Positions 5,888 through 51,058 of a stretch of DNA of 64,000 nucleotides are shown here, piece after piece. Source of the stretch: Candidatus Doudnabacteria bacterium. Lineage in GTDB: Bacteria > Patescibacteriota > Doudnabacteria > UBA920 > O2-02-FULL-48-8. Numbering within the stretch: the first letter of the stretch is position 1; each line of letters begins with the position of its first letter. The stretch spans positions 760,235 to 824,234 of the forward strand of contig JBBCGO010000001.1 of the NCBI GenBank assembly GCA_037200925.1. Reading direction: 5' to 3'. A program made the translations under genes and the position numbers. A model generated the notes under the pieces. The model saw only the letters and a list, made by a program, of their open reading frames with translations. It did no database searches and was not told the DNA's origin.

Positions 5888-7090
5888 ATGGAATTTGCAT
5901 ACCAAGCGCGGGATAATACAGGCAAGATGCGGACCGGCACGGTTCAAGCCGTCAATGAAACCAATGCATTGGAGATCCTCGGAGAGCACGGTCTGATCGT
6001 GATCAAAATGCTGCCGAGCAACAAGGTTGACATCTTTGAACGCGTGAAAATTTTTGACAGGGTCTCTTCGAAAGATATTGTGCTGTTTTCACGACAGCTG
6101 GCTACTTTGATCAGCGCTAAGGTTCCGATCGTGGAAGCGATAAAAATTTTGCAAAGCCAGGTAGCTTCCAAAAAATTGAAATCCGTTCTGGGCGAGATCG
6201 CTCAGCTTGTGGAATCCGGCGACAGCTTTTCCTCGGCCGTGGCCCGTTACCCGAAAATATTTTCAAAACTTTATGTGAACCTGATCCGGGCCGGCGAACT
6301 GTCGGGGACTATGGATGAATCCTTGTCGTTTTTGGCCAATCAATTGGAAAAGGACTATGACCTGCGGTCCAAGGTCATCGGTGCTTTGACTTACCCGGCA
6401 TTCATTGTGGGAACCCTGGTCGTCGTCGGGTTTTTGATGTTTACTTACGTTCTGCCGCCGCTGGTCAGCGTTTTGCAGGCCTCATCCGTTGAATTACCGT
6501 TCACAACCAAGATTTTGATAGCGACCATGAATTTTGTCCAGCATTTCTGGTGGCTGGTCCTGGCAATCATCATCGGACTGATCGTTGGCTATCGGTTTTA
6601 CAGTAAAACCCCGGGCGGACAATATTTTATCGATAATGTCAAAATCCACCTGCCGGTGTTCGGTTCCTTGTTCCAAAAAATCTATATGACCCGATTCGCC
6701 AGAAATTTATCAACACTGATTGCAGGCGGGATCCCAATCGTCAGGGCGCTAGAATCGGTTGCCGATATAGTGGGGAACGAAGTCTATAAAGAGATCATAT
6801 TGGAGGCGGCTGAACAGGTCCGCAACGGCAAAAGCATTGCTTCCGCCCTAACCTCCAGGCCCGAATTCCCGGCGATTGTGGCGCAAATGACGCAAATCGG
6901 CGAGACTACCGGCCGTTTGCAGGAAATTTTGGACAAATTGGCGATATTTTATGAGAAGGAGATGGAGGTAGTTTTGAACACCTTAACGACCCTGCTTGAG
7001 CCTATTATAATGCTGGTCCTGGGCGTGGCGGTGGCGGTCATGGTTGCAGGAATTTTACTTCCGATATATAGTTTAGCTGGAGCTGCTTAA
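5888..7090 (+). CDS. pilC: Type IV pilus inner-membrane platform protein PilC (GspF family)
   Basis: 400 aa with two GspF repeats and 3 TM segments. Confidence 0.85.
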   Translation: MEFAYQARDNTGKMRTGTVQAVNETNALEILGEHGLIVIKMLPSNKVDIFERVKIFDRVSSKDIVLFSRQLATLISAKVPIVEAIKILQSQVASKKLKSVLGEIAQLVESGDSFSSAVARYPKIFSKLYVNLIRAGELSGTMDESLSFLANQLEKDYDLRSKVIGALTYPAFIVGTLVVVGFLMFTYVLPPLVSVLQASSVELPFTTKILIATMNFVQHFWWLVLAIIIGLIVGYRFYSKTPGGQYFIDNVKIHLPVFGSLFQKIYMTRFARNLSTLIAGGIPIVRALESVADIVGNEVYKEIILEAAEQVRNGKSIASALTSRPEFPAIVAQMTQIGETTGRLQEILDKLAIFYEKEMEVVLNTLTTLLEPIIMLVLGVAVAVMVAGILLPIYSLAGAA

Positions 7091-7225
7091 GACAGGTATG
7101 AGACAAAAATTAACAGGAAGCAATAATACATAAGAGGTAGTTAGGGAATTGAACAAATTCTTCATTTTCCTTTTTGCCTCTGATGTAATTTGTGGTTTCC
7201 TTCTTAAATGGAAGGGGGTGAAATT

Positions 7226-14820: not shown

Positions 14821-15414
14821 ATGCCAAATAACAAATTCCAAATACCGAATAAAATCTCAAATTTTAAAATTGGGAAGTCTCAATCGGCGTTCACGCTGAT
14901 TGAGACGGTAGTCGCCACGGCTGTGTTCGCTTTTGTCGTGACTTCAATTCTGGGTGTATATATATCAACCATCCAGCTGGACCGCAAAAGCCGGGCGCAG
15001 AGAGCCGTGGCCCAGGACGCCCGGTTCATCATGGAGTTCTTAGCCAAAGAGGTCCGCAACGGGACCATCAATTACCCAAGTTACGCATCAAGCACGGTTT
15101 CCGGCACCAGTGACTTATATATCCAGAACCAGGCCAACGTAGTTGAGCACTTTTTTTTGAGCGGAACGAACATGCTCATAAACAAAGGCGGGGCCAACGC
15201 TAATATGAATTCCAGCGGCACAAAGGTTACCAATCTGCTGTTTTATATCCAGCCCACAACCGATCCCTATACACCGGCCAAGAGCGCTAACGATCAGCCT
15301 CATGTGACAGTGGTCCTGGATCTGCAGTCAAACTACGGAACTGCGGCCAAAGACACCGTGACCATGAGCCTGCAGGACTCGTTTGCTATCAGTCGGTATA
15401 CAAGCAGGAGATGA
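14821..15414 (+). CDS. Short pilin-like protein; pilin domain 100% identical to the N-terminus of the downstream giant gene
   Basis: 'SAFTLIETVVATAVFAF' prepilin signal. nt 14907-15388 are identical to 15536-16017 (tandem duplication). May be a functional short pilin or a duplication remnant. Confidence 0.5.
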   Translation: MPNNKFQIPNKISNFKIGKSQSAFTLIETVVATAVFAFVVTSILGVYISTIQLDRKSRAQRAVAQDARFIMEFLAKEVRNGTINYPSYASSTVSGTSDLYIQNQANVVEHFFLSGTNMLINKGGANANMNSSGTKVTNLLFYIQPTTDPYTPAKSANDQPHVTVVLDLQSNYGTAAKDTVTMSLQDSFAISRYTSRR

Positions 15415-15473: not shown

Positions 15474-18400
15474 ATGAATCTAAAACCTATAACCCGTAAC
15501 CTGAGATCTGATTCAGGCTTTACCCTGATCGAAGCGGTAGTCGCCACGGCTGTGTTCGCTTTTGTCGTGACTTCAATTCTGGGTGTATATATATCAACCA
15601 TCCAGCTGGACCGCAAAAGCCGGGCGCAGAGAGCCGTGGCCCAGGACGCCCGGTTCATCATGGAGTTCTTAGCCAAAGAGGTCCGCAACGGGACCATCAA
15701 TTACCCAAGTTACGCATCAAGCACGGTTTCCGGCACCAGTGACTTATATATCCAGAACCAGGCCAACGTAGTTGAGCACTTTTTTTTGAGCGGAACGAAC
15801 ATGCTCATAAACAAAGGCGGGGCCAACGCTAATATGAATTCCAGCGGCACAAAGGTTACCAATCTGCTGTTTTATATCCAGCCCACAACCGATCCCTATA
15901 CACCGGCCAAGAGCGCTAACGATCAGCCTCATGTGACAGTGGTCCTGGATCTGCAGTCAAACTACGGAACTGCGGCCAAAGACACCGTGACCATGAGCCT
16001 GCAGGACTCGTTTGCTACAAGGCAATATCCGCTCCGGGTGTTTGGCGCAGGTTATACCACTCCTCTCTATACCACCCCTACTTACCCGACTCCGGCTTCA
16101 GGATTCGCCACCGGCGGCGCTGTCAGTACCAGTGGTTCAAATACTGTCCGTACTTTTAGTACAAGCGACACACTTACGGTTTTCAGCGCAGGGACGATTC
16201 AATACCTGATAGTTGCCGGCGGCGGCGGCGGCGGACAAGCTGACGGCGCCGGTGGTGGTGCCGGAGGAGTGATTACAGGACAGATGTCAATTGCGGCGGG
16301 TACCTACCCTATAATTGTGGGCGGCGGGGGCACAGGTGCCACAGGCAGTTGTCTAATTTCTGGAGACACTGGTAGCTCAGGGTCAAACTCGAGTTTTCAT
16401 GGTCTCACTGCTATCGCCGGCGGCGGCGGCGGCAGTTATGGTACCAGCGGTCTCAATGGCGGCTCAGGCGGCGGGGGCGGCGCAGGCAATGGTGCTGCCA
16501 CTGCCGGGCTTGGAACACCTAACCAAGGACATGACGGCATGAACTCAAACAATCCTCCTTTTGGCGGCGGCGGCGGCGGTGCTACGGCGGTTGGTGGTGG
16601 TTGGACTGCTGCAGCCGGCATCGGTGGCGCTGGAATACCTTCCGATATCACCGGCGCGACTGTTTACTACGGCGGCGGCGGCGGTGGTGGTGCTAATAGT
16701 GCCAACGGATCTGGCGGTACCGGAGGAGTTGGCGGCGGCGGCACTGGCGGTACCGGCGGCGGCGGCGGCAATGGCATCAACGGTACAGGCGGCGGCGGCG
16801 GAGGAGGAGGCCGCATCAATACCGTTCCTAATCCTACCTGCAGCGGCGGCGGCACTGGCGGCAATGGCGTTGTACTCATTCGCTATCTGACAAATCCCGA
16901 TATTACTCCTCCGGTTGTCACAGCTTTTGATGTTCAGCCAAAATTTACTTCAGGCGCGGTTACCGCAACTTTCACAACCACTGACTCTGGAGGCTCGCAT
17001 CTGAAGGATGCTGAGCTTTGGCGGGCCACTGCCCGATCCAACTGCACGACTACAGATGACTCCGGCTGTAATGATTGGGCTGCTGTGGAAAGCGAAGTCG
17101 CCGTGAGCGACGTTGTATGGACAAGTTTGGTAAATACGACTGCTACCGGAAATACTCTGACAAAAACCGGCGGAGCGGTCGGTACCAATGATGCGGGAGC
17201 CGTTTCGACTCGGACCATCGACTCCGGTGACGGTTATGTGGAATTCACTTACAACGGCAGCGGTTTTGGCGGCTTTGTGGATGGGGGATTAAGCAATGGA
17301 AATACTGACCAGAGTGTTGCCGATATAGATTTTGGAATAAAGCTGCAGCAAAGTAATTTTTTCTATGCTGAGGAAAATGGAGTGCCTAAAGGCTCTGCCG
17401 GCTCTTATGTTGTCGGGGATGTATTCAGAATCGCAGTTGTAGGAGGCGTAGTCCAATATTCGAGGAACGGGACGGTATTTTATACCAGCGTTCAATCGCC
17501 GACTTACCCCTTGTTATTTGATACATCCATAAAAGAACTTAATAGTTCAATCGCTAATGCCAAGATAGCCTCAACAGTCTCAGATTCCTGGACCGGAAAT
17601 CTTACCGATACTCCTCCGGCCAATATTGCCGAAGTTTACGGACTGCGTGTCCATGACAATGCGGGAAACACAGGATTCCAGCAGACGAAGATAATGGTCG
17701 GCGAAGTTACCCCGCCTGTCGTCACAGCGTTTGACGTTCAGCCCAGAACTACTTCAGGTTCAGTTACCGCCACATTTACGGCCACTGATTCCGGAGGCTC
17801 GCATCTGAAGAATGCCGAGCTTTGGCGCGCTACTGCCCGAACCAACTGCACGATTTCGGATAATTCCGGCTGCAATGATTGGGCTGTTGCGGCAAACACA
17901 ACCATTCCCGCCAATAATGTTGTATGGACAAGCGCGGTAAATGCGACTGCGACAGGAAACACTCTGACAAAAACCGGCGGAACGGATGGAACCTATGACG
18001 CAGGAGCTGTTTCGACCCAGACCATCGGCACTGATGGCGGTTATGTGGAATTCACTTACGCGAGCGGTACCGGCTTGATGGCCGGCGGATTAAGCAATGG
18101 AAATACTGATCAGAGTGATGCCGATATAGATTTTGGAATAAAGCTGCAACAAAGTAGTTTTTTCTATGTTTATGAAAAAGGAGTACAAAAAGGCAGTACA
18201 GGCACTTATGCTGTCGGGGATGTATTCAGAATCGCAGTTGTAGGAGGCGTAGTCCAATATTCAAGGAACGGGACGGTATTTTATACCAGCGTTCAATCGC
18301 CGACTTACCCCTTGTTATTTGATACATCCATAGGCGGCAGTAATAATTCAATCTCTAATGCCAAGATTTATTATCCCTCCTTAGATTCCTGGTCGGGTAC

Positions 18401-21400
18401 CATGACTGATACTCCTCCCACCGATACCTCATACATCTATGGCGTGCACGTTTATGACTATTCGGGAAACTTTGGACTGGAACCTGCCAAGATCTTTGTG
18501 AGCTCAACCTCATACGGTGTCACAACTTCCGGTTTTTATACCGTATATACGTTTACGATAAGCGGCACGTTTACGGTTGCATCTCCGCAAAGTGTCCAAG
18601 TTCTGGTGGTGGGCGGAGGCGGAGGCGGCAGCGGCAGTGCTAGCGGTGGCGGTGGCGGAGGAGGAGGAGCCGGCGGTTATAATTACAATGCGAATTATAG
18701 TGTGACTCCAGGTTCATACTCTGTCACAGTAGGTGCCGGAGGTGCTGGAGGCGTTGCCAATGTCCGTGCCAATGCACCAAATGGTTCTAATTCAAGTTTC
18801 GGAACCATCACCTCTATCGGTGGTGGTGGCGGCAATGGTTGGACTGATCCGAAAGCTTCTAATGGCGGTTCGGGTGGCGGAGCGGAATGGGGTGATACAG
18901 TCGGATTAGGCACAGCCGGCCAGGGGAACAATGGCGGTCTTGCCTCTACTACTGCTCCTGCCTCCGGCGGCGGAGGCGGCGGAGGCGCAGGTGCGGTTGG
19001 AGGAGCCGGCTCTAGCACAAATGGCGGAAATGGGGGAATTGGTCTTGCAAATTCCATCACCGGTACGTCTGTCTACTATGCCGGCGGCGGCGGCGGCGGC
19101 TCAACCAATGCTGCAGGATCTGCAAGCGCCGGCGGCCTTGGCGGCGGCGGCGTCGGAGGAAAAGTTTCTGCCGGGTCGCCCGGAACTGCCGGCACAGGCG
19201 GAGGCGGCGGTTCAGGCTCGAATGGGCTTGCCGGCGGCGCAGGAGGCAGCGGTATTGTGATCATCAGTTTTCTTACAACCCCGGATACGACGCTTCCTGT
19301 AGTATCTGCTTTTGACGTACAACCCAGGACAGCATCAAGTTCTGTTACTGCCACATTCACTGCCACTGATAGCGGAGGCTCGCATCTGCAGAAAGCAAAT
19401 CTAATGAGAGCGGTTTACGACGCTTCCACTTGTACAACCACGGTCAATACCGGTTGTGTATGGTCTGTTGCATCAACTATCACCGCTCCAGCGGCTGCAG
19501 ATACTTGGAACGCCGGATCATCACCGCCGGCAATGTTTTCTGAAATTCCTCCGGCCGCATCTTATATCTATGGCATTCAAGTCTATGACAATGCGGGAAA
19601 CTTTGGTCTTGAGCCTGCAAAGATCAAAGTTGATGCATTCGGATTATCAGCCTCCGGCGGTACCATTACAACCTCAGGCGGAGTTACGACTGCGACATTC
19701 ACAACCAGCGGTACATTTACGGTTAGCGGTTCCGGGACAATTGATTATCTTGTGGTCGGCGGCGGCGGAGCCGGTGGTGCGGGCGGCGGTGTTGGCGGCG
19801 GCGGCGGCGGAGCCGGTGGCGTGTTCAGCGGTTCCATGGCCGTTACTGCTCAAGCCTACCCTATAACAATTGGTGCCGGCGGTGCCGGAGGAGGAGCGGC
19901 CGTAGGCCCCAAGGGCTCCAATACAGTATTTGGAGCTATCACAGCTCTCGGCGGCGGCGGCGGCGGTAATTATTGTAATAATGCTACAAATGGCGCTTCA
20001 GGCGGAGGCGGCTCTTATAACTGTACTGCTGGAACGGGTACGGCAGGTCAAGGGCATGATGGCGGAGCGGGTAGTACTGACTCGCCATACGGCGGCGGCG
20101 GCGGCGGCGGGGTTAGCGGCAGTGGCGGAGCCGGCAGCAATACAAACGGCGGTGCCGGCGGAGCCGGTATTGCAAGTTCTATCACGGGTTCGCCTGTCTT
20201 CTATGGCGGCGGCGGCGGGGGCAGTATCTCAAGCGGTCCTCCTGGTCCTGGCGGCTCAGGCGGCGGGGGAGCTGGCGGAAGCGGCGCTAGTAACGGAACA
20301 AATGCGACCCCCAACACGGGCGGCGGCGGCGGTTCAGGCAGCGGTGCCGGCGGCAGCGGCGTAGTTATTATTCGTTATATTTCACCTGTAGTGGAGGGCA
20401 TTGCCCCGGTCGTTTCAGCTTTCGATGTGCAGCCGAGAAGCGGTTCAAATTTAGCTACTGCAACGTTCACAGCCACTGATGCCGGAGGCTCGCATCTACA
20501 GAAAGCTGACCTCTGGAGAGCTCCTTATGATGCCAGTGTTTGCAATCCTGCGGGCAGTACTGCCGGATGTAATTTCGGTGCATCTCCGGTAGATTCAGTC
20601 AATGCTCCGCCCGCCTCGGATGGCCCATGGAACGGCACCTTGCATGATTATGCCGTCGGGTCTTTGGTCTATGGCCTCCATGTATATGACAATTCAGGCA
20701 ATACCGGATTTGAGCCCGCAAAGATCAAAGTTGACGGTCATGCGGCATTCGCCACAGGCGGCACTATTACAACTTCTGGTATTTATGCGATCCATACTTT
20801 TACCTCAAGCGGTACATTCACGGTTATTGGATCGTCCCCCGCATCAGTTGATTATCTTGTGATCGGCGGCGGCGGAGCGGGCGGTGGTGCCGGCAATCCG
20901 GGCGGCGGCGGCGGTGGTGCCGGCGGCATGCGTAACGGTTCGCTGGCAGTTAGCCCTCAATCCTACACAGTAACAATCGGCGGAGGAGGTGCGAGCGTCG
21001 GCGCGAATGGTTCTAATTCTGTATTTGGATCTATCACTGCTCTCGGTGGCGGTGGCGGTGGCACTTATGGTTCTGCTGCTGCAAGTGGCGGGTCGGGTGG
21101 TGGCGGCTCTTATACCTATTCCGTTGGAAATGGTACGTCCGGTCAGGGTAACAATGGCGGATCAGGTACTACTAATTCTCCTTACGGAGCCGGCGGCGGC
21201 GGCGGCGCGGGTGCTGTTGGAGGAGCCGGCAGCGCTTCTGTTGGCGGAACCGGCGGAGCCGGTGCTTCGAGTACCATTTCCGGCGCAACTGTCTTCTATG
21301 CCGGCGGCGGCGGAGGTAATGTCTCAAGCGGTACTTCGGGTCCTGGCGGCGCCGGCGGCGGCGGAGCGGGCGGCCTCGGCGGCGCCGGAACAAATGGGAC

Positions 21401-23357
21401 CGCCAATACAGGAGGAGGCGGCGGCGGCGGCAGCGGTTCCGGCGGCAGCGGCATTGTTATTATTCGTTATCTTATACCGGTTCTAGAAGCCACTCCTCCG
21501 GTCGTTTCAGCCTTTGATGTGCAGCCGAGAAATGGTTCAAACGCAGTTACCGCAACTTTCACAGCCACTGATGCCGGAGGATCGCATCTTCTGAAAGCTG
21601 ACCTCTGGAAAGCTGTCTATGATGTCAGCAACTGCAATCCTGCGGGCAGCACTGCCGGCTGTAACTTCGGAGCAACTCCGGTAAACTCAGTCAATGCTCC
21701 GGCTGGCTCGGATGGCCCATGGAGCAGCTCTATGCTTGATAATGCCGCGGGGTCTGTGGTCTATGGCCTGCATGTTTATGACAATTCTGGCAATACCGGA
21801 TTTGAGCCGGCAAAGATCAGAGTTGATGCCCCGGCAGCATTCGCCACAGGTGGCACTATTACAAGTTCTGGCTTCAATGAGATCCATACCTTTACGTCGA
21901 GTGGGACTTTCACGCCCAGCGGTTCCGGGTCGATTCAATATCTGATAGTCGGCGGCGGAGGCGCAGGAGGCAGCGGCAGCGGCGGCACGGGCGGCGGCGG
22001 CGGAGGCGGGGGAGGAGTGCAAACCGGCACGCTGGCAGTTACTGCTCAACCCTACACTGTAACAATCGGCGGCGGCGGGGCAGGAGGTGCCAGCTCTGGA
22101 GCGAACGGTTCTAATTCAGTATTTGCATCTATCACTGCTACCGGCGGCGGCGGCGGCGCTACTTATGGAGTTGCTCCCGGAAACGGCGGTTCCGGCGGCG
22201 GCGGCGATTATAACGGAGTTGCGGGAACCGGTACCTCGGGTCAGGGTAACAATGGCGGATTGGGTTCCACTACTTCTACTTACGGCGGCGGTGGTGGTGG
22301 AGGAGGTGGTACTGCTGGAGGAGCCGGCAGTGCTACTGTTGGCGGAACCGGCGGCGCGGGTTTTTCGAGTTCCATTTCCGGCTCAGCTATCTTCTATGCC
22401 GGCGGCGGTGGAGGAGGCATTGTAAGCGGCACTCCCGGTCTTGGCGGAGGCGGCGGAGGAGGCGCGGGCGGAGCCGCTGGAAACGGTACCAGCGCTACAC
22501 CCAACACCGGCGGCGGAGGAGGCGCGGGCGGAAGCTCATCAGGACTTGGAGCTGCCGGCGGTTCCGGAATTGTTATTATCCGGTATAATCCTAGTCCTAG
22601 TGCATTTTTGCTGACCTCAGGCTCCTCTTGGACGGTTCCTGCTGGAGTTACAAGTATACAAACATGGGCAATCGGCGGCGGCGGTGGGGCAGGAGGAGCC
22701 GGACCCGCAGATGCCTCAACTGGTAGCGGTGGTGGAGCGGGAGGAGTAGCCTATAGTGCTTTTACTGTATCTCCTGGGGCGACTGTTTCTTATAGTTTGG
22801 GCAGCGCAGGTACAGGGGGTTCCGGCTGCGCCGGCGGTTCGACCGGTACGGCCGGCGGAAATACTACTGTGACAGTAGGCGGAGTAACCATCACCGGAAA
22901 TGGCGGCGGGGCGGGCGGCTGCAATACGGGAGTCGGCGGTACGGGTGGAAGTTTCAGCCCTAGCGGTGCAGCTGGCGCAGCCGGTCAAGGTGTAACTGGC
23001 GAAGGAGGGGGAGGATACGGCGGCGCAATAGGCGGCGGCATTGGTACCGCAGGAGGCAATGCCGGAAGTACAGGCGGTCAAGCTGTGGATGTTTCGGGCT
23101 CGAATGCGGTAATATCTGCGGCAGGATTCAGTACTTCGTCTCCTGGTGTTGGAGGCGGCACTGCTAGTACCCCTGCAAACGCGGTGAATGGAACGAGCGC
23201 AACGGGAGTAGGCGCGGGCGGGGGAGGAGCAGGTTGGTATGGGGGAACCGGAGGAAACGGTCTGTATGGAGGAGGCGGAGCAGGCGCTGCGGGATATCAA
23301 ACTAGTACGACGGGCGGAGCGGGCGGAGCCGGAGCAGTTCTTATAACATTCCCTTAA
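15474..23357 (+). CDS. Giant (2,627 aa) pilin-leader-fused, glycine-rich repeat surface protein (putative pilus-associated adhesin)
   Basis: N-terminal prepilin signal 'GFTLIEAVVATAVF' plus a ~165-aa pilin domain. About 6 repeats follow, each an Ig-like module 'PPVV(T/S)AFDVQPR...TATFTATD(S/A)GGSHL' plus a Gly-rich module 'SGTFTV...YLVVGGGGAGG...'. Two copies of a ~120-aa lectin-like segment ('GYVEFTY...DIDFGIKLQQS...VFRIAVVGGVVQYSRNGTVFYT'). Local GC is far above the flanking DNA. Confidence 0.75.
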   Translation: MNLKPITRNLRSDSGFTLIEAVVATAVFAFVVTSILGVYISTIQLDRKSRAQRAVAQDARFIMEFLAKEVRNGTINYPSYASSTVSGTSDLYIQNQANVVEHFFLSGTNMLINKGGANANMNSSGTKVTNLLFYIQPTTDPYTPAKSANDQPHVTVVLDLQSNYGTAAKDTVTMSLQDSFATRQYPLRVFGAGYTTPLYTTPTYPTPASGFATGGAVSTSGSNTVRTFSTSDTLTVFSAGTIQYLIVAGGGGGGQADGAGGGAGGVITGQMSIAAGTYPIIVGGGGTGATGSCLISGDTGSSGSNSSFHGLTAIAGGGGGSYGTSGLNGGSGGGGGAGNGAATAGLGTPNQGHDGMNSNNPPFGGGGGGATAVGGGWTAAAGIGGAGIPSDITGATVYYGGGGGGGANSANGSGGTGGVGGGGTGGTGGGGGNGINGTGGGGGGGGRINTVPNPTCSGGGTGGNGVVLIRYLTNPDITPPVVTAFDVQPKFTSGAVTATFTTTDSGGSHLKDAELWRATARSNCTTTDDSGCNDWAAVESEVAVSDVVWTSLVNTTATGNTLTKTGGAVGTNDAGAVSTRTIDSGDGYVEFTYNGSGFGGFVDGGLSNGNTDQSVADIDFGIKLQQSNFFYAEENGVPKGSAGSYVVGDVFRIAVVGGVVQYSRNGTVFYTSVQSPTYPLLFDTSIKELNSSIANAKIASTVSDSWTGNLTDTPPANIAEVYGLRVHDNAGNTGFQQTKIMVGEVTPPVVTAFDVQPRTTSGSVTATFTATDSGGSHLKNAELWRATARTNCTISDNSGCNDWAVAANTTIPANNVVWTSAVNATATGNTLTKTGGTDGTYDAGAVSTQTIGTDGGYVEFTYASGTGLMAGGLSNGNTDQSDADIDFGIKLQQSSFFYVYEKGVQKGSTGTYAVGDVFRIAVVGGVVQYSRNGTVFYTSVQSPTYPLLFDTSIGGSNNSISNAKIYYPSLDSWSGTMTDTPPTDTSYIYGVHVYDYSGNFGLEPAKIFVSSTSYGVTTSGFYTVYTFTISGTFTVASPQSVQVLVVGGGGGGSGSASGGGGGGGGAGGYNYNANYSVTPGSYSVTVGAGGAGGVANVRANAPNGSNSSFGTITSIGGGGGNGWTDPKASNGGSGGGAEWGDTVGLGTAGQGNNGGLASTTAPASGGGGGGGAGAVGGAGSSTNGGNGGIGLANSITGTSVYYAGGGGGGSTNAAGSASAGGLGGGGVGGKVSAGSPGTAGTGGGGGSGSNGLAGGAGGSGIVIISFLTTPDTTLPVVSAFDVQPRTASSSVTATFTATDSGGSHLQKANLMRAVYDASTCTTTVNTGCVWSVASTITAPAAADTWNAGSSPPAMFSEIPPAASYIYGIQVYDNAGNFGLEPAKIKVDAFGLSASGGTITTSGGVTTATFTTSGTFTVSGSGTIDYLVVGGGGAGGAGGGVGGGGGGAGGVFSGSMAVTAQAYPITIGAGGAGGGAAVGPKGSNTVFGAITALGGGGGGNYCNNATNGASGGGGSYNCTAGTGTAGQGHDGGAGSTDSPYGGGGGGGVSGSGGAGSNTNGGAGGAGIASSITGSPVFYGGGGGGSISSGPPGPGGSGGGGAGGSGASNGTNATPNTGGGGGSGSGAGGSGVVIIRYISPVVEGIAPVVSAFDVQPRSGSNLATATFTATDAGGSHLQKADLWRAPYDASVCNPAGSTAGCNFGASPVDSVNAPPASDGPWNGTLHDYAVGSLVYGLHVYDNSGNTGFEPAKIKVDGHAAFATGGTITTSGIYAIHTFTSSGTFTVIGSSPASVDYLVIGGGGAGGGAGNPGGGGGGAGGMRNGSLAVSPQSYTVTIGGGGASVGANGSNSVFGSITALGGGGGGTYGSAAASGGSGGGGSYTYSVGNGTSGQGNNGGSGTTNSPYGAGGGGGAGAVGGAGSASVGGTGGAGASSTISGATVFYAGGGGGNVSSGTSGPGGAGGGGAGGLGGAGTNGTANTGGGGGGGSGSGGSGIVIIRYLIPVLEATPPVVSAFDVQPRNGSNAVTATFTATDAGGSHLLKADLWKAVYDVSNCNPAGSTAGCNFGATPVNSVNAPAGSDGPWSSSMLDNAAGSVVYGLHVYDNSGNTGFEPAKIRVDAPAAFATGGTITSSGFNEIHTFTSSGTFTPSGSGSIQYLIVGGGGAGGSGSGGTGGGGGGGGGVQTGTLAVTAQPYTVTIGGGGAGGASSGANGSNSVFASITATGGGGGATYGVAPGNGGSGGGGDYNGVAGTGTSGQGNNGGLGSTTSTYGGGGGGGGGTAGGAGSATVGGTGGAGFSSSISGSAIFYAGGGGGGIVSGTPGLGGGGGGGAGGAAGNGTSATPNTGGGGGAGGSSSGLGAAGGSGIVIIRYNPSPSAFLLTSGSSWTVPAGVTSIQTWAIGGGGGAGGAGPADASTGSGGGAGGVAYSAFTVSPGATVSYSLGSAGTGGSGCAGGSTGTAGGNTTVTVGGVTITGNGGGAGGCNTGVGGTGGSFSPSGAAGAAGQGVTGEGGGGYGGAIGGGIGTAGGNAGSTGGQAVDVSGSNAVISAAGFSTSSPGVGGGTASTPANAVNGTSATGVGAGGGGAGWYGGTGGNGLYGGGGAGAAGYQTSTTGGAGGAGAVLITFP

Positions 23358-27685: not shown

Positions 27686-27714
27686 TTGTTTAAGGGGTTA
27701 AATTGTATTATCAT
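27686..27714 (+). promoter_or_regulatory. Sigma70-type promoter (TTGTTT-17-TATCAT) for KGG gene copy 1
   Basis: Near-identical 55-bp upstream block repeated at 28053-28081. Confidence 0.5.
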
Positions 27715-27752
27715 GCCAGTAATTTGTGAAGCTTCGATTTTTAGGGAGGGCA

Positions 27753-27917
27753 TATGGGTAAGGAAGACCGTACGGACCGCCGAGGATTTGCTTCCATGGA
27801 TCCAGAAAAACAGCGCAGGATCGCCAGCAAAGGCGGACGTTCTGCTCACGAGAAAGGCAAGGCTTACGAATGGGACGCCGAGGCGGCGCGTAACGCTGGC
27901 CGCAAGGCGGACAAGTA
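27753..27917 (+). CDS. KGG-repeat general-stress-like small protein (YciG/Con-10-like), copy 1
   Basis: 55 aa 'RGFASMDPEKQRRIASKGGRSAHEKG...AARNAGRKADK' with two KGG-type repeats. RBS GGAGGG. Too short to appear in the supplied ORF track. Confidence 0.6.
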
Positions 27918-28052
27918 AGCCGCGGCGGCCGTGGACGACTTGATCAGCCCGCAGCGCCATTCCAGATCCATCAATAGAATAAAGAGCAGTCAAATGATGA
28001 CTCTCCAACAGCGTTTGCGAGCATTTGCGGCGCTTTTTTTTGCCAAAGCAGA

Positions 28053-28081
28053 TTGTTCAAGAGGTTAAATTGTATTATCAT
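28053..28081 (+). promoter_or_regulatory. Sigma70-type promoter (TTGTTC-17-TATCAT) for KGG gene copy 2
   Basis: Duplicate of the 27686-27714 element. Confidence 0.5.
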
Positions 28082-28115
28082 GCCAGTAATTTGAGCAATT
28101 TTTTGAGGAGGATGC

Positions 28116-28375
28116 ATGGACCAGCAAGACCGCAAAAACCCTCGGGGGTTTGCATCTCTGTCAGTGGAAAGGCGGCGCGAGCTCGGCAGCAAGGGCGGAC
28201 CGCGCGGCGCACGAGAAGGGCACTGCGTTTGAATGGAACTCCGATGAGGCGCGAGATGCCGGCCGCAAAGGAGGACGACTCAGTCGCGGCGGCCGTGGAC
28301 GGCTCAGTGTGCTGGCGGAGAACTCTCCGCCTCTTTTTCCAGAACCAACCGAACAGGAGCAAGCGAGCTCAGTAG
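28116..28375 (+). pseudogene. KGG-repeat stress-like protein, copy 2, with an internal +1 frame change
   Basis: 'MDQQDRKNPRGFASLSVERRRELGSKGG' then a stop. The second KGG repeat ('AAHEKGTAFEWNSDEARDAGRKGGRLSRGGRG') continues in another frame. The 222-aa ORF 28150-28818 is a read-through artefact. Confidence 0.4.
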
Positions 28376-29306: not shown

Positions 29307-29335
29307 TTGACACTCTTTTCAAAAAAAGTTATAAT
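29307..29335 (+). promoter_or_regulatory. Consensus sigma70 promoter (TTGACA-17-TATAAT), putative rRNA operon promoter
   Basis: Perfect -35 and -10 hexamers with a 17-bp spacer, followed by a ~600-nt structured leader and the 23S gene. Confidence 0.7.
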
Positions 29336-29955
29336 TTAATAAGTTTAGTCAAAACAAACAATTAATTTGATAAATAGGGCATAAATTATGGTTAATCAGG
29401 ACATTTTCACGATAAAGATAGGCGGTTCCATGAACTAGCACGCATTTTTTATGTGTGTGTGAGCATGACCCGCCAAAAGGCGGTTTTTTGTTGGAATTTA
29501 TATCTAGGATTCACTGCTTCCCCGCACAGCTTGACTTAAGCAGGGTCTGAAAGCAAGCAGTGGATTCTGGACGTAAAGGTTAGCACTTTGGACAACTAAC
29601 CGGCATCAAAAGAAACATGTTTTGCCGAATGCGTATGGGAACTGATGAGGTTCCGGTAGGCGCAGACGGACAGATTAATTTCTGAACATGTTTGAATCCA
29701 AGTCCTCGTCATGTAAACGGGCAAATAATAAGTAATTAGTAATCACTATTGCTAGTCAAATATATTATGAGGAAAGAACCTTCGGTTCTCTCCTCATCGC
29801 GCCCGTCGCAGAGCCGATTTTGCTTCGCAAAACAAGCGCCGCTTACTCCTCTCTCCTCCAAAAAGGAAAAGGAGCAGGCTGCTTGCCGAACGAAGTGAGG
29901 TCAGCTTTGCTGACAGCCGATGAGGGAAAACCGCAGGTTGTCCCTCATAACTTGA

Positions 29956-33321
<3,366 letters not shown>

Positions 33322-33519
33322 TTAATTCAAAATTAAAATTTTCCTCAGAAAATTTTATCCCGAGGATATATTTCTTGGGAAGGTTTTAGTTTTTTTGACT
33401 AGCAGTTAGTGATTATTAAAAATTACATAATTGTGTGCTGGGTAATGGAGTTGGGCGGATATGTTGTTGACGCGAAACCGGCGTGCGGAGTTTCTACCGT
33501 CCACGTTTCGAGGTTAGCG

Positions 33520-33880
33520 AATACACAACTTCTTCCCATCCTGGGAAAGTTACCAGGCTGGTGGGGCATTGTCTTGACCGCGTAATAAGGTCAAGACGCG
33601 ACAGATGTCTGCCTAAGCCAGTCTGGTAACTCTTCCCGGTTTCAAAAGTTACAAATTCGACTGTGAGATGTATTCCATCAAGAGTGAGTGAGGTGGAAGC
33701 AGGCTGCGGCCGAAGCGTCAAATCCTAACCTGTTGCGGGTTAGGACACAGTTCGGATACCGGAAAGTCACCAGGCTAAGTGAACAACGGCGCAACCTCCC
33801 CGGTTGCGAGGGAACGTTTGTCTGCGGTCTGGTGACTCTTCCCGGTTTTAATGGGGAAGGTTGCGGTTCTGAAACACGAT
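33520..33880 (+). ncRNA. Two tandem copies of a structured RNA motif in the 23S-tRNA spacer
   Basis: Copy 1 'GTTACCAGGCTGG...CCAGTCTGGTAACTCTTCCCGGTTT'. Copy 2 'GTCACCAGGCTAAG...GGTCTGGTGACTCTTCCCGGTTTT'. The closing stem shows a compensatory T>C / A>G change. Confidence 0.4.
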
Positions 33881-33943
33881 GCAATTGGTTCGTGCGACGA
33901 ACGGTAACTGACCCCCGCCAATTTCAAGGAGAAATAAGTTTGT

Positions 33944-34046
33944 GGGCGTGTAGCTCAGACGGTAGAGTGCTGAATTAGGATCGACTTTCTTTGCCATGTC
34001 GTCTCCTGATCAGAAGCCGCAGGTTCGAGTCCTGCCACGTCCACCA
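33944..34046 (+). tRNA. Atypical tRNA-like gene (103 nt) with about 27 extra nt in the anticodon-arm region; isotype undetermined
   Basis: Canonical acceptor (GGGCGTG/CACGTCC), D-arm 'TAGCTCAGACGGTAGAGT', T-arm 'GCAGGTTCGAGTCCTGC' and an encoded CCA. There are 34 nt between the anticodon-stem halves 'CTGAA'/'ATCAG', including the hairpin 'GGATCGAC...GTCGTCTCC'. Confidence 0.5.
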
Positions 34047-34061
34047 ACCTTTGCAACAAGA

Positions 34062-34137
34062 GTGGGATTAACTCAATGGTAGAGTGCCGCCTTGCAAAGG
34101 TGGAAGTTGGTGGGTTCGAATCCCATGTCCCGCTCCA
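34062..34137 (+). tRNA. tRNA-Cys (GCA)
   Basis: Cloverleaf with anticodon loop 'TTGCAAA', T-loop 'TTCGAAT' and encoded CCA. Acceptor stem carries two G-U pairs. Confidence 0.65.
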
Positions 34138-34348
34138 ACTTTTTTGGCGAAGACAACAAATTCGCCTCCATTTCCCAGCACGCAAGATAAGATGCCGATT
34201 GACGAAAGGCAATATTTTTGCTAAAATAATTAAGTATGCAAAGATATTCTGCTTCGTTAAAGTTGGTTGGTTTGTTGTTGGTCATTGCGGCAATAGGCAT
34301 CATTGTCTTTGCTGTAACGAGCAACACATTATAAATTTCATTTAATCT

Positions 34349-34463
34349 CCTCGTGTTTCAAGGCTTGTGGCCCGACCTGATCCCATCCCGAACTCAGAAG
34401 TCAAACGCAAGACCGCCGATGATACTTCAGTGTAAGACTGACGGGAAAGTAGGCAATGCGGGG
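34349..34463 (+). rRNA. rrf: 5S ribosomal RNA
   Basis: Conserved 'CCGAACTCAGAAGTCAAACG' and 'AGTAGG' blocks. Helix I 'CCTCGTG'/'TGCGGGG'. Followed by a T-run. Confidence 0.8.
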
Positions 34464-34471
34464 TTTTTAAT

Positions 34472-34906
34472 TTGTCTAAAATATTGCGTGTAGATATGCC
34501 TGTAAGCACTAGACATAATTATGGATTTCCGCTAGGCTTTGGAACATTGGGAGGACTTATGAAAAGGCTTCTTTTTCTGGTTTTTGGAGTAATTTGTGCT
34601 TGGTTTTTTGTTTTCGTCTTCGGCTTCGCAGATCCTTCGCAATTTCCAGAACCCTGGGTTTGGGTTATCATTCCAAGCGCATTTACTTTGGCCATTACGT
34701 GTTTCGCTGGCGCTGTAATGTCCCCATCAGATAAATTTGAGTGGCAACTGTTGTTTTTATTTGGAATGGCAGTCGCGGGATTAAATGCCACTTTTACATG
34801 TTTTTTTACTTTTCTGGTGAAATTTAAGGATGGAGGTAATTCCGGCCGCCTATCTGGTGGCAACAGTCATTTTGGGCTCGCTCACTTCTCTTTTTTGGGG
34901 AGCTGA
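34472..34906 (+). CDS. Hypothetical integral membrane protein (4 TM)
   Basis: 144 aa, hydrophobic. No recognisable motif. Confidence 0.4.
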   Translation: MSKILRVDMPVSTRHNYGFPLGFGTLGGLMKRLLFLVFGVICAWFFVFVFGFADPSQFPEPWVWVIIPSAFTLAITCFAGAVMSPSDKFEWQLLFLFGMAVAGLNATFTCFFTFLVKFKDGGNSGRLSGGNSHFGLAHFSFLGS

Positions 34907-35492: not shown

Positions 35493-35792
35493 ATGGTTCC
35501 CACCTATGAGGCCTATATTGAAGACGAGGAGTCAGATGCGGAAAATGACGAGATCGAAGAAGTGATCACCGACATTGAAGATGAGTGTGCCTTAGTTTTT
35601 GACAACGAGGCCAATGGCAAAATGCTGAATGAAATTTTTGACGCCGCCAGGGCTAATTATGAAAAAGACCGCAGCGGTTGGAAAAGCTTTTTCGGCGACT
35701 TGAAGTTCGAATTGATCGCAACTGATGATGAAGACAACCTGCGGGATATTCTCTCTCATCATTTAAGAAAGGCCAGGCTGGAATTAAGCTGA
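35493..35792 (+). CDS. Hypothetical acidic protein
   Basis: 99 aa, very acidic N-terminus (EDEESDAENDEIEE). Stop overlaps the start of the next gene. Confidence 0.4.
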   Translation: MVPTYEAYIEDEESDAENDEIEEVITDIEDECALVFDNEANGKMLNEIFDAARANYEKDRSGWKSFFGDLKFELIATDDEDNLRDILSHHLRKARLELS

Positions 35793-37099
35793 TGCGAATC
35801 ATCGCTGACCTACAAATCCATTCAAAATACTCCCGAGCGTGTTCCCAGGACCTGAATCCTGGGAACATTGGTAAGTGGGCGGATAAAAAAGGCATCCAGG
35901 TGATCGGCACCGGAGACTTTACGCATCCCAAGTGGCTGGCGGAACTCAAAGATGCTTTGGAAGAAACCAAGCCCGGGCTTTATCAGCTCAAGGACAGATC
36001 CGCAAGGGCTTATTTTATGCTGACCGCGGAAGTGTCGTCTATCTATAAACAGGGCGACAAGGTCCGCAGGATCCACAATATGATCTTGGCCCCGAATTTT
36101 GCAGCAGTTGAAAAGATAATTGCGGGTTTGGAAAAAACAGGCGCCAATCTTAAGTCCGACGGCCGGCCGATCATGGGCGTGAAGTGTCCGGACCTGGTCA
36201 AAATAGTTTTAGATGCAGATCCCGGGAATGTGATCATTCCGGCGCATGCCTGGACCCCGCATTTCGGGTTGTTCGGCTCGCTTTCAGGGTTTGACACGAT
36301 CGAAGAAGCCTTCGGCGACCAGGCAAAGCATATTTTTGCGATTGAAACCGGGTTGTCATCTGACCCAAAGATGAATTGGCAGATCTCGAGGCTTGATAAT
36401 TATAGTTTGGTATCCAATTCTGATGCGCACAGTTTGCGGAAGATCGGCCGCGAAGCCAATGTCTTTGAAATTCCTGAAGAAAAATTATCATTTGATGAAA
36501 TTATCCGGGTGATCAAAGATAAAAACCCAAAAGAATTTTTGTTTACAATAGAATTCTTCCCGGAAGAGGGCAAATATCATCTGGATGGGCACGCGGACTG
36601 CAAGTTCTCCTGTTTGCCGAAAGAAACCAAGCGATTGAAAGGAATTTGCCCGGTTTGCGGCAAGAAATTATTGATCGGCGTTTTAAACAGGGTTGAGGCG
36701 TTGGGGGATAGGGAATTCGGCTTTATCCCAAAACGCGCAATTCCGTTTAGAAGTGTTATTCCCTTGGAAGAGGTGATAGCTGAAACATACGGCACCGGTA
36801 TTGGCAAAAAAGTTTTGGAAACATATGAACGAATGGTTAGTAACGCCCCCGGCGCTGTCGCGCCACCCCCTCTTAATTTAAGAGGGGGTAGGGGGAGTTA
36901 TTATACAGAGTTTGAGATACTCTTAGATTTACCACGAGAGGAAATAGTAAAAATTTCCGACCCGATTGTGGCAGAATCAATCATCCGTATTCGGGAAGGC
37001 AAAGTCCGCATTGAAGGCGGGTATGACGGAGTGTTTGGTAAAATCCATATATATTCTGACGAGGAAAGAAAGAAAGCCGAACAGCATAGTTTGTTTTGA
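35792..37099 (+). CDS. PHP-domain nuclease of the EndoQ / TIGR00375 family (putative deaminated-base endonuclease)
   Basis: N-terminal 'ADLQIHSKYSRACS...GTGDFTHPKW' PHP motifs and a C-terminal Zn-finger 'C..C...CPVCGKK'. Length 435 aa matches EndoQ. Confidence 0.5.
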   Translation: MRIIADLQIHSKYSRACSQDLNPGNIGKWADKKGIQVIGTGDFTHPKWLAELKDALEETKPGLYQLKDRSARAYFMLTAEVSSIYKQGDKVRRIHNMILAPNFAAVEKIIAGLEKTGANLKSDGRPIMGVKCPDLVKIVLDADPGNVIIPAHAWTPHFGLFGSLSGFDTIEEAFGDQAKHIFAIETGLSSDPKMNWQISRLDNYSLVSNSDAHSLRKIGREANVFEIPEEKLSFDEIIRVIKDKNPKEFLFTIEFFPEEGKYHLDGHADCKFSCLPKETKRLKGICPVCGKKLLIGVLNRVEALGDREFGFIPKRAIPFRSVIPLEEVIAETYGTGIGKKVLETYERMVSNAPGAVAPPPLNLRGGRGSYYTEFEILLDLPREEIVKISDPIVAESIIRIREGKVRIEGGYDGVFGKIHIYSDEERKKAEQHSLF

Positions 37100-41608: not shown

Positions 41609-43346
41609 ATGTTCGATTCACCGATTGACGAGATCAAATCCCGGCTGACCATTACTGAAGTTCTGGGAGATTATATCCAGATGAAGAAAGCCGGGACGAA
41701 TTTTAAAGCGGTTTGTCCGTTCCATTCGGAAAAAACGCCGTCTTTAATGGTGTCGCCGTCAAAACAGATCTGGCACTGCTTTGGCTGCGGCCTGGGCGGG
41801 GATATTTTTGAATTCATCAAACTGATAGAGAACGTAGAGTTTCCCGAAGCGCTTGCGGATCCTGGCGGACCGCGCCGGCGTAGAACTGAAAAAACCGACA
41901 GTTGAGCAGATCCAGATGGGGCGAGAAAAAAGATGTGCTGTTTGAGATCAACCTGCAAGCCGCCAAGTATTTTGCCAAAGTTCTGTGGGAATCCAATGCC
42001 GGTTCCGAAGCCCTATCTTACCTACGCAAGCGGGGACTGACCGATCAGACGATCAAAAATTGGCAGCTGGGTTTGCACCGGATGATTTTCATTACCTTGA
42101 GAATTTTTTGGCCAAAAGTTTTGACAAAAAAGATATTGAGCAGGCTGGTTTGATCGTCAAAAGCGACCGAGGTGATCACTTTGACCGTTTTCATGACCGG
42201 ATCATGTTCCCGATCACGAGTTTGCACGGCCAAGTTGTGGGCTTTACCGGCCGACTGCTTCACGATAAACCCAACACCGGCAAATACGTAAATAGCCCGG
42301 AGACCCCGATCTATAACAAGAGCCAGGTCATCTATGGTTTGTACCAGGGAAAAAATACGGTCCGCAAAGAAAATCGCGCAGTGGTTGTGGAAGGGAACAT
42401 GGATGTCATCGCCTGCCATCAGATCGGTTTTAGCCAAACTGTGGCTTCTTCCGGCACGGCCCTCACCGAGCAGCAGCTTTTGATTCTGCAAAGATTTACC
42501 AATAATCTTATTTTTGCTTTTGATTCAGACGCGGCCGGTTCCACGGCTACGAAACGGGCGTTGGAACTGGCGTTAAATCAGGGGTTCAATGTGAAGATCG
42601 CGGAGCTTGGAGGCGCCAAGGACCCGGATGAGCTGATCAGGCGGGGGATCGGGCTATGGGAGAAAGCGGTTGAGGGAGCGGAGAATTACGTTGACTTCTT
42701 TTTTGACCGGATCTTTGCGCAATATGATCCGACGAAAGTCGATGATAAGCGGCAAATCACCAAAGAACTGGGGCCTTTGATCTTTCGCGTGACAGACCCC
42801 GTATCGCGCGCGCATTATGTCAGAAAGCTGGCAAATGGCATCAATGTTGCAGAAAATAGCATCTGGGATATAATAAACAAGCTAAGTATGCCTAAACCGG
42901 TCCGTGCCGCCATCAAAAATGAGCCGCACAAGATGCGCCGGGAAGTGCTGATAGATCAGCTGTTAGGCCTAAGTATCAGTCAAAAGAACACTACAATGCT
43001 GCAGCAGTTCAAGCTGCAGGATTTTGGCCTACGGGCGGAAATATTCAGACTGCTCACCGAAAGCCAGCCTGATCTGGAAAAGTTAAGCCGAGCCAATCCC
43101 GAATTAGCCGCAACGCTGGAACTGCTCGTGTTTGCGGCAGAGATCGACCTGAAAGAGCAGCAACTGGACCCGAAAACCGAATTACCGAAGATCGCCGACC
43201 AGCTGCAGCAAATGGTCATTCGGCAGAGGATGCAAGAGCTGTCGGAGCAATTAAAGAACGCCGAGCAGAACAAGAATAAGATATTGATAGACGAGCTGTC
43301 AAAAGAATATATGATACTGAGCAACCGGATAAAAATTTCTAATTAA
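41609..43346 (+). CDS. dnaG: DNA primase DnaG; reading frame interrupted by three homopolymer-associated frameshifts in the first ~160 codons
   Basis: Zn-binding domain 'CPFHSEKTPS...CFGCG' in frame A. 'RILADRAGVELKKPT' in frame +1 after the T3C3 run at 41837-46. 'DVLFEINLQAAKYF' is in a third frame after the A7 run at 41934-40. 'FAPDDFHYLENF...' plus the TOPRIM 'EGNMDV', 'FDSDAAG' lie in a further frame after TTT 42072-74. Confidence 0.7.
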
Positions 43347-43357
43347 TAATTTTAAGC

Positions 43358-44585
43358 ATGGCTAAAGCAAAGAAGAAGAAAGTAAAAAAGGCAAAGAAAG
43401 CCGTTAAGAAAGTTATAAAGAAAGTCAGCAAGGCTGTAAAGGTGCGGTCGCGTATGCCTATGAAGCGGGAGCCCGAAAAAAAGACCGGGAGTTCTTTTGA
43501 TTGGGATAAAGCGGTTGACGACCTGGTCAAACGGGGAGTGGCGCGCGGGTTTCTGACCGAAGCTGAGGTCACGCACGCTTTGCCTGAAATGGAAAACAAT
43601 CTGCCGGCTCTGGAAAAACTGCTGGATGTTCTGGATTCCAAGGGCTTGGAGATCATGGATCAGGAAGTGGCCTCGGTCTGGCAGCAGGCGGCTGAATCGG
43701 CGCGCGTCAAGACGAAAAAAGAAGAGCAGATGGCAGAGTCCTACAATCTCGGAGATATTTATGACGATTCAATTCAAATGTATTTGCGCGAGATCGGCAA
43801 AACCGCTTTGCTGAAAGGCGTGGAAGAAGTTGAACTGGCAAAAAGGATCGGCAAAGGCGATGTGGCGGCCAGAAAAAGACTGATCGAAGCCAACTTGCGT
43901 TTGGTGGTATCTATTGCGAAAAAATACATGGGCCGCAACTTGGGGGCTTCTGGACCTGATCCAGGAAGGCAATCTCGGACTGTTCCGCGCGGTGGAGAAA
44001 TTTGACTGGCGCAAAGGCTACAAATTCTCAACTTACGCCACCTGGTGGATCCGCCAAGCCATCACACGCGCTCTGGCTGACCAGTCGCGCACGATCCGCA
44101 TTCCCGTGCATATGGTGGAAACGCTGAACAAATACGCTCAGGCGGAGCGCCAGCTGGTCCAGGACCTGGGACGCGAGCCTTTGCCGGAAGAGATTGCCTC
44201 TGAGATGGGCATTGAAGTTGAAAAAGTTTATCAGCTCAAGAAAATTTCTCAGGAAACCGTGTCCATAGACACGCCGGTGGGGGACAGCGATGAAGAAGAT
44301 TCGTACCTGGGCGATTTCATCGAAGACCCGGATACGGTCACGCCTTCGGAAACCGCGGGCCGGCAGATCCTGCGCGAATATGTCCAGGGGATCCTCAAGG
44401 ACCTGGATCCGCGCGAGCAGAAGATCTTGAAAATGCGATTTGGCCTGGAAGACGGGGTCACGCACACTTTGGAAGAGGTCGGCAAGGAATTCGGCGTCAC
44501 GCGCGAGCGCATCCGGCAGATAGAAGCCAAAGCCCTGGAGCGCATCAAGGATCACTATAATATTTCCAAACTGCGGGATTACTAA
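43358..44585 (+). CDS. rpoD: Primary sigma-70 factor RpoD with a Lys/Ala-rich N-terminal tail; one homopolymer frameshift
   Basis: Region 1.2/2 '[11 protein letters not shown]' continues as '[20 protein letters not shown]...[13 protein letters not shown]' in the +1 frame after the G5 run at 43942-46. Region 4 '[17 protein letters not shown]'. N-terminus '[27 protein letters not shown]'. Confidence 0.8.
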
Positions 44586-48055: not shown

Positions 48056-48202
48056 TATTTTAGGTCTTTCTTAGCTAAATTAGCTATTATTGATAATTAT
48101 ATCATCTTTTTTGCCTCCTATATATTGTCAAAGAACGGTATCATGGCTTTCTTGCTTTGAAGCCAAGCTACTTTAACTTGGAAGCATAAGTGATTTTACA
48201 AT

Positions 48203-48400
48203 TGTTGTCAATCATTAACAGCAATTTAAAACTGATTTCTTTTGAACCAAAAAAAGTTGGCGGAAGCCAACTTGTTTTAGCCAATGTTTAATTGCCTTTA
48301 TATTAAATTGTTGGTATATTATAACAGTAGAATCAGCGAATTTCTTTTTGACTAGGCCTACTGTCAGCATTCATAAACAAATATGGACTTATGGCCTAAA
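48203..48400 (+). repeat. About 185-bp direct repeat, copy A (duplicate of the TrmB-like gene promoter/5' end, with truncated start ATGGACTTATGGCCTAAATAG)
   Basis: About 90% identical to 50857-51058. Contains the imperfect palindrome 'TTGTTGTCAATCATTAACAGCAA' and a TATATTATAA -10-like element. Confidence 0.65.
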
Positions 48401-50856: not shown

Positions 50857-51058
50857 TTGTTGTCAATCATTAACAGCAATTTAAAACTGATTTCTTTTGA
50901 GCCAAAAAAAGTTGGCAGAAGCCAACCGGTTTTGACCAATGTTTAATTGCCTTTATATTAAATTGTTGGTATATTATAACAGTAGAAGTTGCGGGTTTTC
51001 TTTTTTACCCCTCTACTGTCAATATTCATAAACAAATATGGATTTATTGCTTAAACAA
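50857..51058 (+). repeat. About 185-bp direct repeat, copy B (native promoter/operator region and start of the TrmB-like gene)
   Basis: See copy A. Confidence 0.65.

Follow-up and report, generated by a model that had tools for sequence, protein, structure and literature searches.

The locus described here lies in a 64-kb stretch of DNA, referred to as the window, from a member of the Doudnabacteria, and it carries a 23S–5S rRNA operon on the forward (+) strand, to which all the features of the operon given below belong. The operon is arranged in the order promoter, 23S, spacer, tRNA-like gene, tRNA-Cys and 5S. Transcription would start at a perfect sigma-70 promoter (29307-29335), matching 12 of 12 consensus positions, and proceed through a 23S leader of ~620 nt into the 23S gene (29955-33329) and finally the 5S gene (34349-34464), with no strong terminator predicted between 23S, spacer, tRNA-like gene, tRNA-Cys and 5S. 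A 16S gene was not found in the 64-kb window, and the locus represents a 23S–5S unit unlinked from 16S in a CPR bacterium. Positions 1-2925 of the Rfam model LSU_rRNA_bacteria are fully covered by the 23S gene, whose length of 3375 nt points to insertions inside it; in relatives, the 23S genes contain group I introns with LAGLIDADG open reading frames (ORFs). Relatives were fetched through homologues of an EndoQ-family gene (35792-37099) that is downstream of and syntenic with the 5S gene, giving a comparison set of six other Doudnabacteria 23S–5S spacers (L006/L025, L008, L009, L026, L027 and L030).

Two genes of the tRNA type precede the 5S gene. The upstream one (33944-34046) scores 52.6 bits with the Rfam tRNA model, has an encoded CCA end and carries a 27-nt insertion in its anticodon loop. 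It is overlooked by ARAGORN with default settings and is read with the option -i as a tRNA-Pro(AGG) with an intron at 38/39; its acceptor, D and T arms are all good despite the insertion. To our knowledge, a short insertion of this kind is unexpected in a bacterial tRNA. The counterpart in L006 (positions 6005-6073 of that sequence) is an odd 69-nt ‘tRNA-Glu(UUC)’. The downstream gene (34062-34137) is a tRNA-Cys(GCA), recognized by both Rfam and ARAGORN, and tRNAs in the 23S–5S spacer are, as far as we know, uncommon. Between the 23S trailer and the 5S gene there is also an ORF for a 32-aa hydrophobic peptide, MQRYSASLKLVGLLLVIAAIGIIVFAVTSNTL (34237-34335), which has its own sigma-70-like promoter (34199-34227; 10 of 12 positions, with TG). 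Each of the seven lineages has the peptide, 14 of whose residues are invariant, and it has no match among the NCBIfam families. A protein gene and a second promoter within an rRNA operon are unusual.

As in other bacterial pre-rRNAs, in which leader–trailer stalks flank 16S and 23S and are substrates of RNase III, the leader and trailer of this 23S pair over a long range, forming a duplex of -60.6 kcal/mol (RNAduplex). The 3′ strand of the inner processing stem (33394-33419) pairs with the leader at ~29733-29760, and this inner stem is conserved in relatives. The 3′ strand of the outer stalk, GATGCCG (34191-34197), pairs with CGGCATC of the leader (29601-29607) and covaries in L026, in which the paired strands read GCATCTTAT in the leader and ATAAAGATGC in the trailer. 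Between these two trailer strands lies an insert of ~757 nt (33431-34187), which has homologues at the same site in relatives. Since it is flanked on its 5′ and 3′ sides by strands engaged in leader–trailer pairing, the insert is a side branch of the 23S leader–trailer stalk. It is closed by a helix of its own, P0, whose 5′ strand TTGTGTGCTGGGTAATGGAG (33431-33450) pairs with the 3′ strand CTCCATTTCCCAGCACGCAA (34166-34185) at -32.3 kcal/mol over ~19 bp with a single U.U mismatch. The tRNA-Cys gene falls inside the insert, most of which is contained in the spacer stretch 33330-33945, a stretch that folds with z = -8.7. Other hairpin-rich insertions, specific to the window, adjoin the mature 23S: the leader has one of ~190 nt (29761-29950), and the trailer has an AT-rich hairpin of 64 nt (33330-33393). 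Neither occurs in L026, L030 or L009. Another branch of the leader (29611-29732) is common to the window and L030 but missing from L026, where there is no trailer insert either.

The insert contains the two units, U1 and U2, that the original prediction had described as a duplicated structured RNA in the 23S–tRNA spacer. Their position outside the canonical 23S stands, because the LSU match is complete and stops at 33329, where the 3′ boundary of the gene is correctly set; a mis-set boundary was rejected on the same grounds. Neither unit falls in a tRNA gene according to Rfam and ARAGORN, in agreement with what had been claimed. The description as a simple spacer between 23S and tRNA, on the other hand, fell short: the units are sub-helices of the ~757-nt optional, helix-closed insert, which had been missed. 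U1 (33541-33639) consists of a P1 stem (33541-33561 / 33618-33639) of ~22 bp interrupted by a single bulged C, plus a short P1b and a P2 hairpin (33571-33597), and U2 (33759-33845) of a P1 stem (33759-33776 / 33827-33845) of ~19 bp and a P2 hairpin (33790-33808). They share a layout, a closing stem of ~20 bp with a variable tip, and their apical hairpins differ. The stem strings first noticed, GTTACCAG (33549-33556) with CTGGTAAC (33623-33630) in U1 and GTCACCAG (33766-33773) with CTGGTGAC (33829-33836) in U2, are all present, and so are the identical tail CTCTTCCCGGTTT that ends both units (33630-33642 and 33836-33848) and the perfect internal hairpin of U1, GTCTTGACC (33571-33579) with GGTCAAGAC (33589-33597).

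In a repeat search, the 5′ arms, GGAAAGTTACCAGGCT at 33544 in U1 and GGAAAGTCACCAGGCT at 33761 in U2, appear as direct repeats of 16 nt that are 94% identical with a spacing of 217, and the 3′ arms, GTCTGGTAACTCTTCCCGGTTT at 33621 and GTCTGGTGACTCTTCCCGGTTT at 33827, as direct repeats of 25 nt that are 92% identical with a spacing of 206; the arms of U1 were also retrieved as a 22-nt inverted repeat. Shuffles predict 0.00 occurrences of the 22-nt pattern of the 3′ arm in the window, which has two. Arm identity between the paralogues reaches 36/38 (15/16 in the 5′ arm plus 21/22 in the 3′ arm; 95%), as opposed to 24/61 (39%) in the interior. The two long stems are real structures by their folding energies: U1 folds at -60.7 kcal/mol (z = -8.6) and U2 at -43.2 kcal/mol (z = -4.0), and none of 200 shuffles was as good in either case. 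On the opposite strand the folds are weaker (-49.1 and -37.6 kcal/mol), as expected from the G.U pairs present in the transcript strand. The T>C and A>G differences between the units lie opposite each other in the stem, so that the compensatory change proposed at the outset is genuine, and further compensatory and wobble changes occur in three other lineages. A scan for intrinsic terminators (short GC-rich hairpins with a loop of 3-8 nt, followed by at least 5 T) returned neither unit, and the tails that follow these compound hairpins of ~100 nt are just TTT and TTTT.

Downstream of U2, the insert harbors hairpin D (33853-33916), with a conserved internal loop UGAAA / CGAYG and an inner helix CACGA/UCGUG; in an RNAalifold comparison of the window with L009, 3 of its 19 pairs show double-sided changes. 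Next comes a motif resembling a Shine–Dalgarno (SD) sequence, AATTTCAAGGAG (33920-33931), which is present as AAUUUYAAGGAG in all four insert-bearing lineages and unpaired in all four minimum free energy folds. Neither the length nor the frame of the ORFs downstream of this motif is conserved among the window, L006, L009 and L030, and no conserved ORF was called inside the insert in any lineage. At the far end, a terminal hairpin GGCGAAG...TTCGCC (34146-34166) abuts the 3′ strand of P0 in the window and in L030, and a hairpin of other sequence occupies this position in L009 and L006. When the U arms, the P0 strands and the SD-like motif were compared with 23S, 5S and the leader, almost all complementarity stayed within ~2 sd of shuffles; the modest exceptions were the P0 strands against the leader (~2.6-2.9 sd), and the partner of the 3′ strand is not kept in L030.

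The comparison across lineages shows that the insert occupies the same site in four of them and is lost or absent in three of the seven. It is present in the window with U1 and U2, in L006/L025 (628 nt), in L009 (478 nt) and in L030 (~690 nt), so that its length in the four carriers is about 478-762 nt, and the sequence outside the conserved helices varies. The number of tRNA or tRNA-like genes within it is 2, 1, 0 and 0. In L026 and L027 the insert is cleanly absent, the former reading ...CACATA|AAGATGC... across the empty site, and in L008 all that is left of it is its last ~16 nt, TTCCCAGTACACA, which correspond to the 3′ strand of P0. This remnant indicates loss rather than gain of the insert. 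P0 forms in all four insert-bearing lineages, with 94.7% of its cells paired, one double change from G-C to A-U and four wobble changes; as many as 130 of 500 shuffles reach the observed covariation, whose support is weak because P0 is almost invariant. A different palindromic element, one of whose arms is rich in G and the other in C (CAGGTTTCAGGG...CTGACCCCTG), flanks the insert in L009, in a single copy (2055-2125), and in L030, with a copy on either side (6355-6430 and 7135-7200).

One U helix is found at the equivalent place in each of the inserts of L006, L009 and L030. In L030 its strands are 5′ CUGGGAAGUUACCAG and 3′ GGUCUGGUAACUCCUCCCGGUUUU, enclosing an interior of ~130 nt, in L009 they are 5′ GUUACC and 3′ GGUCUGGUAAC, and in L006 they are 5′ GAGUUAUUGUGC and 3′ GCACGGUAACUC. 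Retention of the structure in related genomes had been named beforehand as a test of the prediction, and the U stem is kept in these three other lineages. U2 is the positional orthologue of the single helix of the relatives, being located directly upstream of hairpin D, as in L009, and because the relatives have one helix each, the duplication into U1 and U2 is lineage-specific. A covariance model (R1) built from U1 and U2 alone, with which U1 scores 122 bits, recovers the copies of L030 (E = 0.024) and L009 (E = 0.23) and nothing further in 197 kb of Doudnabacteria DNA. The conservation sample consists of four independent insert-bearing lineages, and the stem was assessed on an alignment of four units together with explicit duplex folding, as MAFFT on five units misaligned the 5′ arms because of the long interior of L030. 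In the four-unit alignment, the 14 pairs of P1 have 98.2% of their cells paired, 3 pairs with double-sided and 4 with one-sided (wobble) changes; values as high came up in only 6-9 of 500 shuffles, and slid registers are paired at 24-50%. Within the stem, GGTCTGGTAAC hardly varies between species, and L009 and L030 have kept the 3′ arm almost identical. The sequence of the U stem is thus conserved beyond the need of pairing, which hints, at the level of sequence, at a specific ligand or function.

Several searches addressed the identity of the insert. Covariance models, proposed in the original prediction as the way to a known family, matched neither the units nor the insert: with Rfam 15 at E<=10, the sole match in 33431-33943 was a chance-level mir-3596 (17.4 bits, with the gathering score at 96), the wider region 33300-34500 yielded the two tRNAs, the 5S and otherwise sub-threshold chance matches, and the insert of L030 gave no family either. 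The strict two-arm motif had two matches in GTDB representative genomes, one in a coding region and one in a terminator hairpin, both by chance, and zero in IMG/VR. Of the 15 loci matched by an 18-mer of P0 in JGI metagenomes, one is real and belongs to the same contig as L006. Comparison of 33431-33943 by blastn with phage and plasmid collections found no match, and a second copy of U or P0 was found neither in the 64-kb window nor in ~133 kb of relatives. The RNase P CR-I box has the sequence GGAAAGUCCGGGCU; reading GGAAAGUCACCAGGCU as such a box was rejected because no RNase P model matched. An attC-like nature was rejected by inspection, in view of the lack of RYYYAAC/GTTRRRY cores and of an integrase. 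A search of the literature on CPR rRNA spacers found nothing relevant.

The insert is most likely a structured, optional pre-rRNA spacer or IVS-like element, found here in an under-studied phylum, and U1 and U2 are probably tandem duplicates of one conserved helix in this lineage-restricted, dispensable spacer domain. Of the three identities first offered, processing element, spacer RNA and degenerate intron, the first two fit the evidence, and the last has no Rfam intron match to support it. The model that we propose starts from an insert co-transcribed with the pre-rRNA from the promoter at 29307-29335. P0 would allow it to branch out between the inner and the outer stalk, leaving the long-range leader–trailer pairing undisturbed. 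U1, U2 and P0, as near-perfect duplexes of at least 20 bp, would serve as substrates of a double-strand-specific RNase of the RNase III type; measured against the length of such substrates (at least 20 bp, or about two turns, of near-continuous dsRNA), U1 offers 22 bp with one bulge, U2 ~19 bp and P0 19 bp. In the tRNA and tRNA-like genes that it embeds, the insert would also have sites for RNase P and RNase Z, and both types of cleavage could jointly dismantle the spacer, free the tRNAs and open access to the 3′ end of 23S. The long duplexes and the embedded tRNAs are best described as probable processing or decay sites. The extra U copy would have arisen by duplication in this lineage, with a period of ~206-217 nt, its stem having been kept nearly unchanged while its interior drifted.

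This picture has parallels in known systems. Like the pre-rRNA stalks, the locus has a long-range duplex around 23S, and the U and P0 duplexes of at least 20 bp are part of the same precursor; unlike them, the U helices form hairpins locally, on an optional branch beside the stalk, with an unusually conserved arm sequence and a putative cleavage. Expansion-type helices and intervening sequences (IVS) of 23S, such as those of helices 25 and 45 in Salmonella and Leptospira, resemble the insert in being optional and patchy, with a stable closing helix, a variable interior and a presumably harmless excision. The insert differs from them in that it lies in the trailer, outside the mature 23S, is much larger and multi-helical, and may hold tRNA genes. 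Spacer and distal tRNA genes of rrn operons act as punctuation for RNase P and RNase Z, and sRNAs derived from such spacers, like 3′ETS-leuZ, can be functional. Here, too, tRNA genes are embedded in the spacer transcript; in contrast, one of the two tRNAs carries the 27-nt anticodon-loop insertion, and two of the four inserts are tRNA-free.

Reading the insert as a spacer domain leaves two features unexplained: the 95% identity of the arms between paralogues, and their near-constancy from one species to another, with diverging interiors, and the conserved, unpaired SD-like motif AAUUUYAAGGAG. Because of them, a functional RNA with a specific partner stays a live rival, and it can be conceived in two forms. 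The insert, or each U hairpin, could be a discrete functional ncRNA, co-transcribed with the rRNA and released by processing, with P1 as a protein site and the tRNA-like module as the signal for its 3′ end. The constancy of the P1 arms next to a divergent interior, the multi-helix architecture and unpaired motif common to four lineages, the tRNA-like gene placed immediately downstream and even the lack of an Rfam family speak for this form; its loss or absence in three of seven lineages, the strong variation in interior, length and tRNA content (0, 1 or 2), the lack of an independent promoter or terminator and the lack of significant complementarity to 23S, 5S or leader speak against it, and we consider it possible, if somewhat unlikely. 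Alternatively, the whole insert might be an undescribed large structured RNA of Doudnabacteria made from the rRNA operon, an idea to which we give a low probability. Such an RNA would be released by processing of the stalk, P0 and the tRNA-like gene, and a protein, or else the 3′ end of 16S, would bind specifically to the core of the near-invariant U duplex, GUUACCAG/CUGGUAAC, and to AAUUUYAAGGAG. If that were true, its role would lie in the biogenesis of ribosomes or in regulation, and one binding module would be present twice as a result of the duplication.

Two other explanations concern the origin of the insert. Selfish palindromic DNA of the MITE or REP type could have entered the spacer, with P0 representing its terminal inverted repeats and U its nested palindromes. 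The insert shares with such elements imperfect inverted-repeat hairpins, an intergenic location and a presence/absence polymorphism that is patchy among similarly related lineages; its termini form an inverted repeat of ~19 bp, and these spacers gather other hairpin insertions, such as the palindrome with G/C arms of L009 and L030 and the window segments 29761-29950 and 33330-33393. It is nevertheless not dispersed in the DNA examined, since neither U nor P0 recurs in the 64-kb window or in the ~130 kb of relatives, phages, plasmids and IMG/VR give no matches, and GTDB representatives and JGI metagenomes remain at chance. Comparison of filled sites (window, L006, L009 and L030) with empty ones (L026 and L027) shows no target-site duplication, site and internal order are identical in four lineages, and the strand-specific G.U pairs with better folding of the transcript strand indicate selection at the RNA level. 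A mobile element is a quite improbable source. A degenerate intron, of group I or group II, or else an intervening sequence, would be compatible with the start of the insert, where GTGTG (33433) resembles the GUGYG of group II 5′ ends, and with the group I introns that reside in the 23S of relatives. However, at E<=10 there is no match in 33300-34500 to the group I core (RF00028), which scores 64-79 bits on those introns, nor to group II models (RF00029 for domain V/VI, and D1-D4). Moreover, GTGTG sits within helix P0, of which the 3′ strand alone survives in L008, and an insert outside the mature rRNA makes splicing unneeded. An intron origin is extremely improbable, and the spacer domain with a duplicated helix is the reading favored here.

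The organization of the rRNA operon of a CPR bacterium is hereby documented, with a stalk that bears optional side branches and with tRNA, tRNA-like and peptide genes between 23S and 5S. The insert is a candidate either for processing determinants or for a new structured RNA carried by the operon, and the phylum is an uncultured one whose RNA biology is almost unexplored. If it is merely spacer architecture, its value would be mainly descriptive, and it would be usable as a lineage marker.

Some other features of the window deserve mention. Within the 23S leader, a terminator-like hairpin CCGCCaaaaGGCGG followed by T6 (29470-29489) has a GGCGG upstream, at 29417, that could combine with it into an antiterminator; a conserved box CCATGAACTAGCACGCA and a GT-rich run separate the two. 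All of these elements (29417-29489) are kept in L026 and L030 and could amount to a short leader RNA or to a leader module for attenuation or antitermination. Upstream of the operon, a glycine-rich protein of 2627 aa (15474-23357; PF21722, Gly_rich_2) has internal repeats of ~1.1 kb and a local GC content of up to 62%, compared with ~46% elsewhere, and a 300-nt direct repeat with 97% identity is found at 14878-15177 and 15507-15806, 629 nt apart. A second direct repeat, of 148 nt (91%; 48202-48349 and 50857-51004), brackets a segment of low GC content (~32%) at 48-51 kb, which may be an inserted island. DnaG (a Zn-ribbon ORF and the catalytic core) and sigma-70 (regions 1; regions 2-4) are each called as two adjacent ORFs (41609-43346 and 43358-44585), and both are single genes in relatives. 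Finally, two tandem small genes (27690-27925 and 28055-28300) encode peptides similar to KGG-type stress proteins, with GGRSAHEKG... in the first of them, and both are preceded by the same promoter-like block of ~40 nt, GGTTAAATTGTATTATCATGCCAGTAATTTG.
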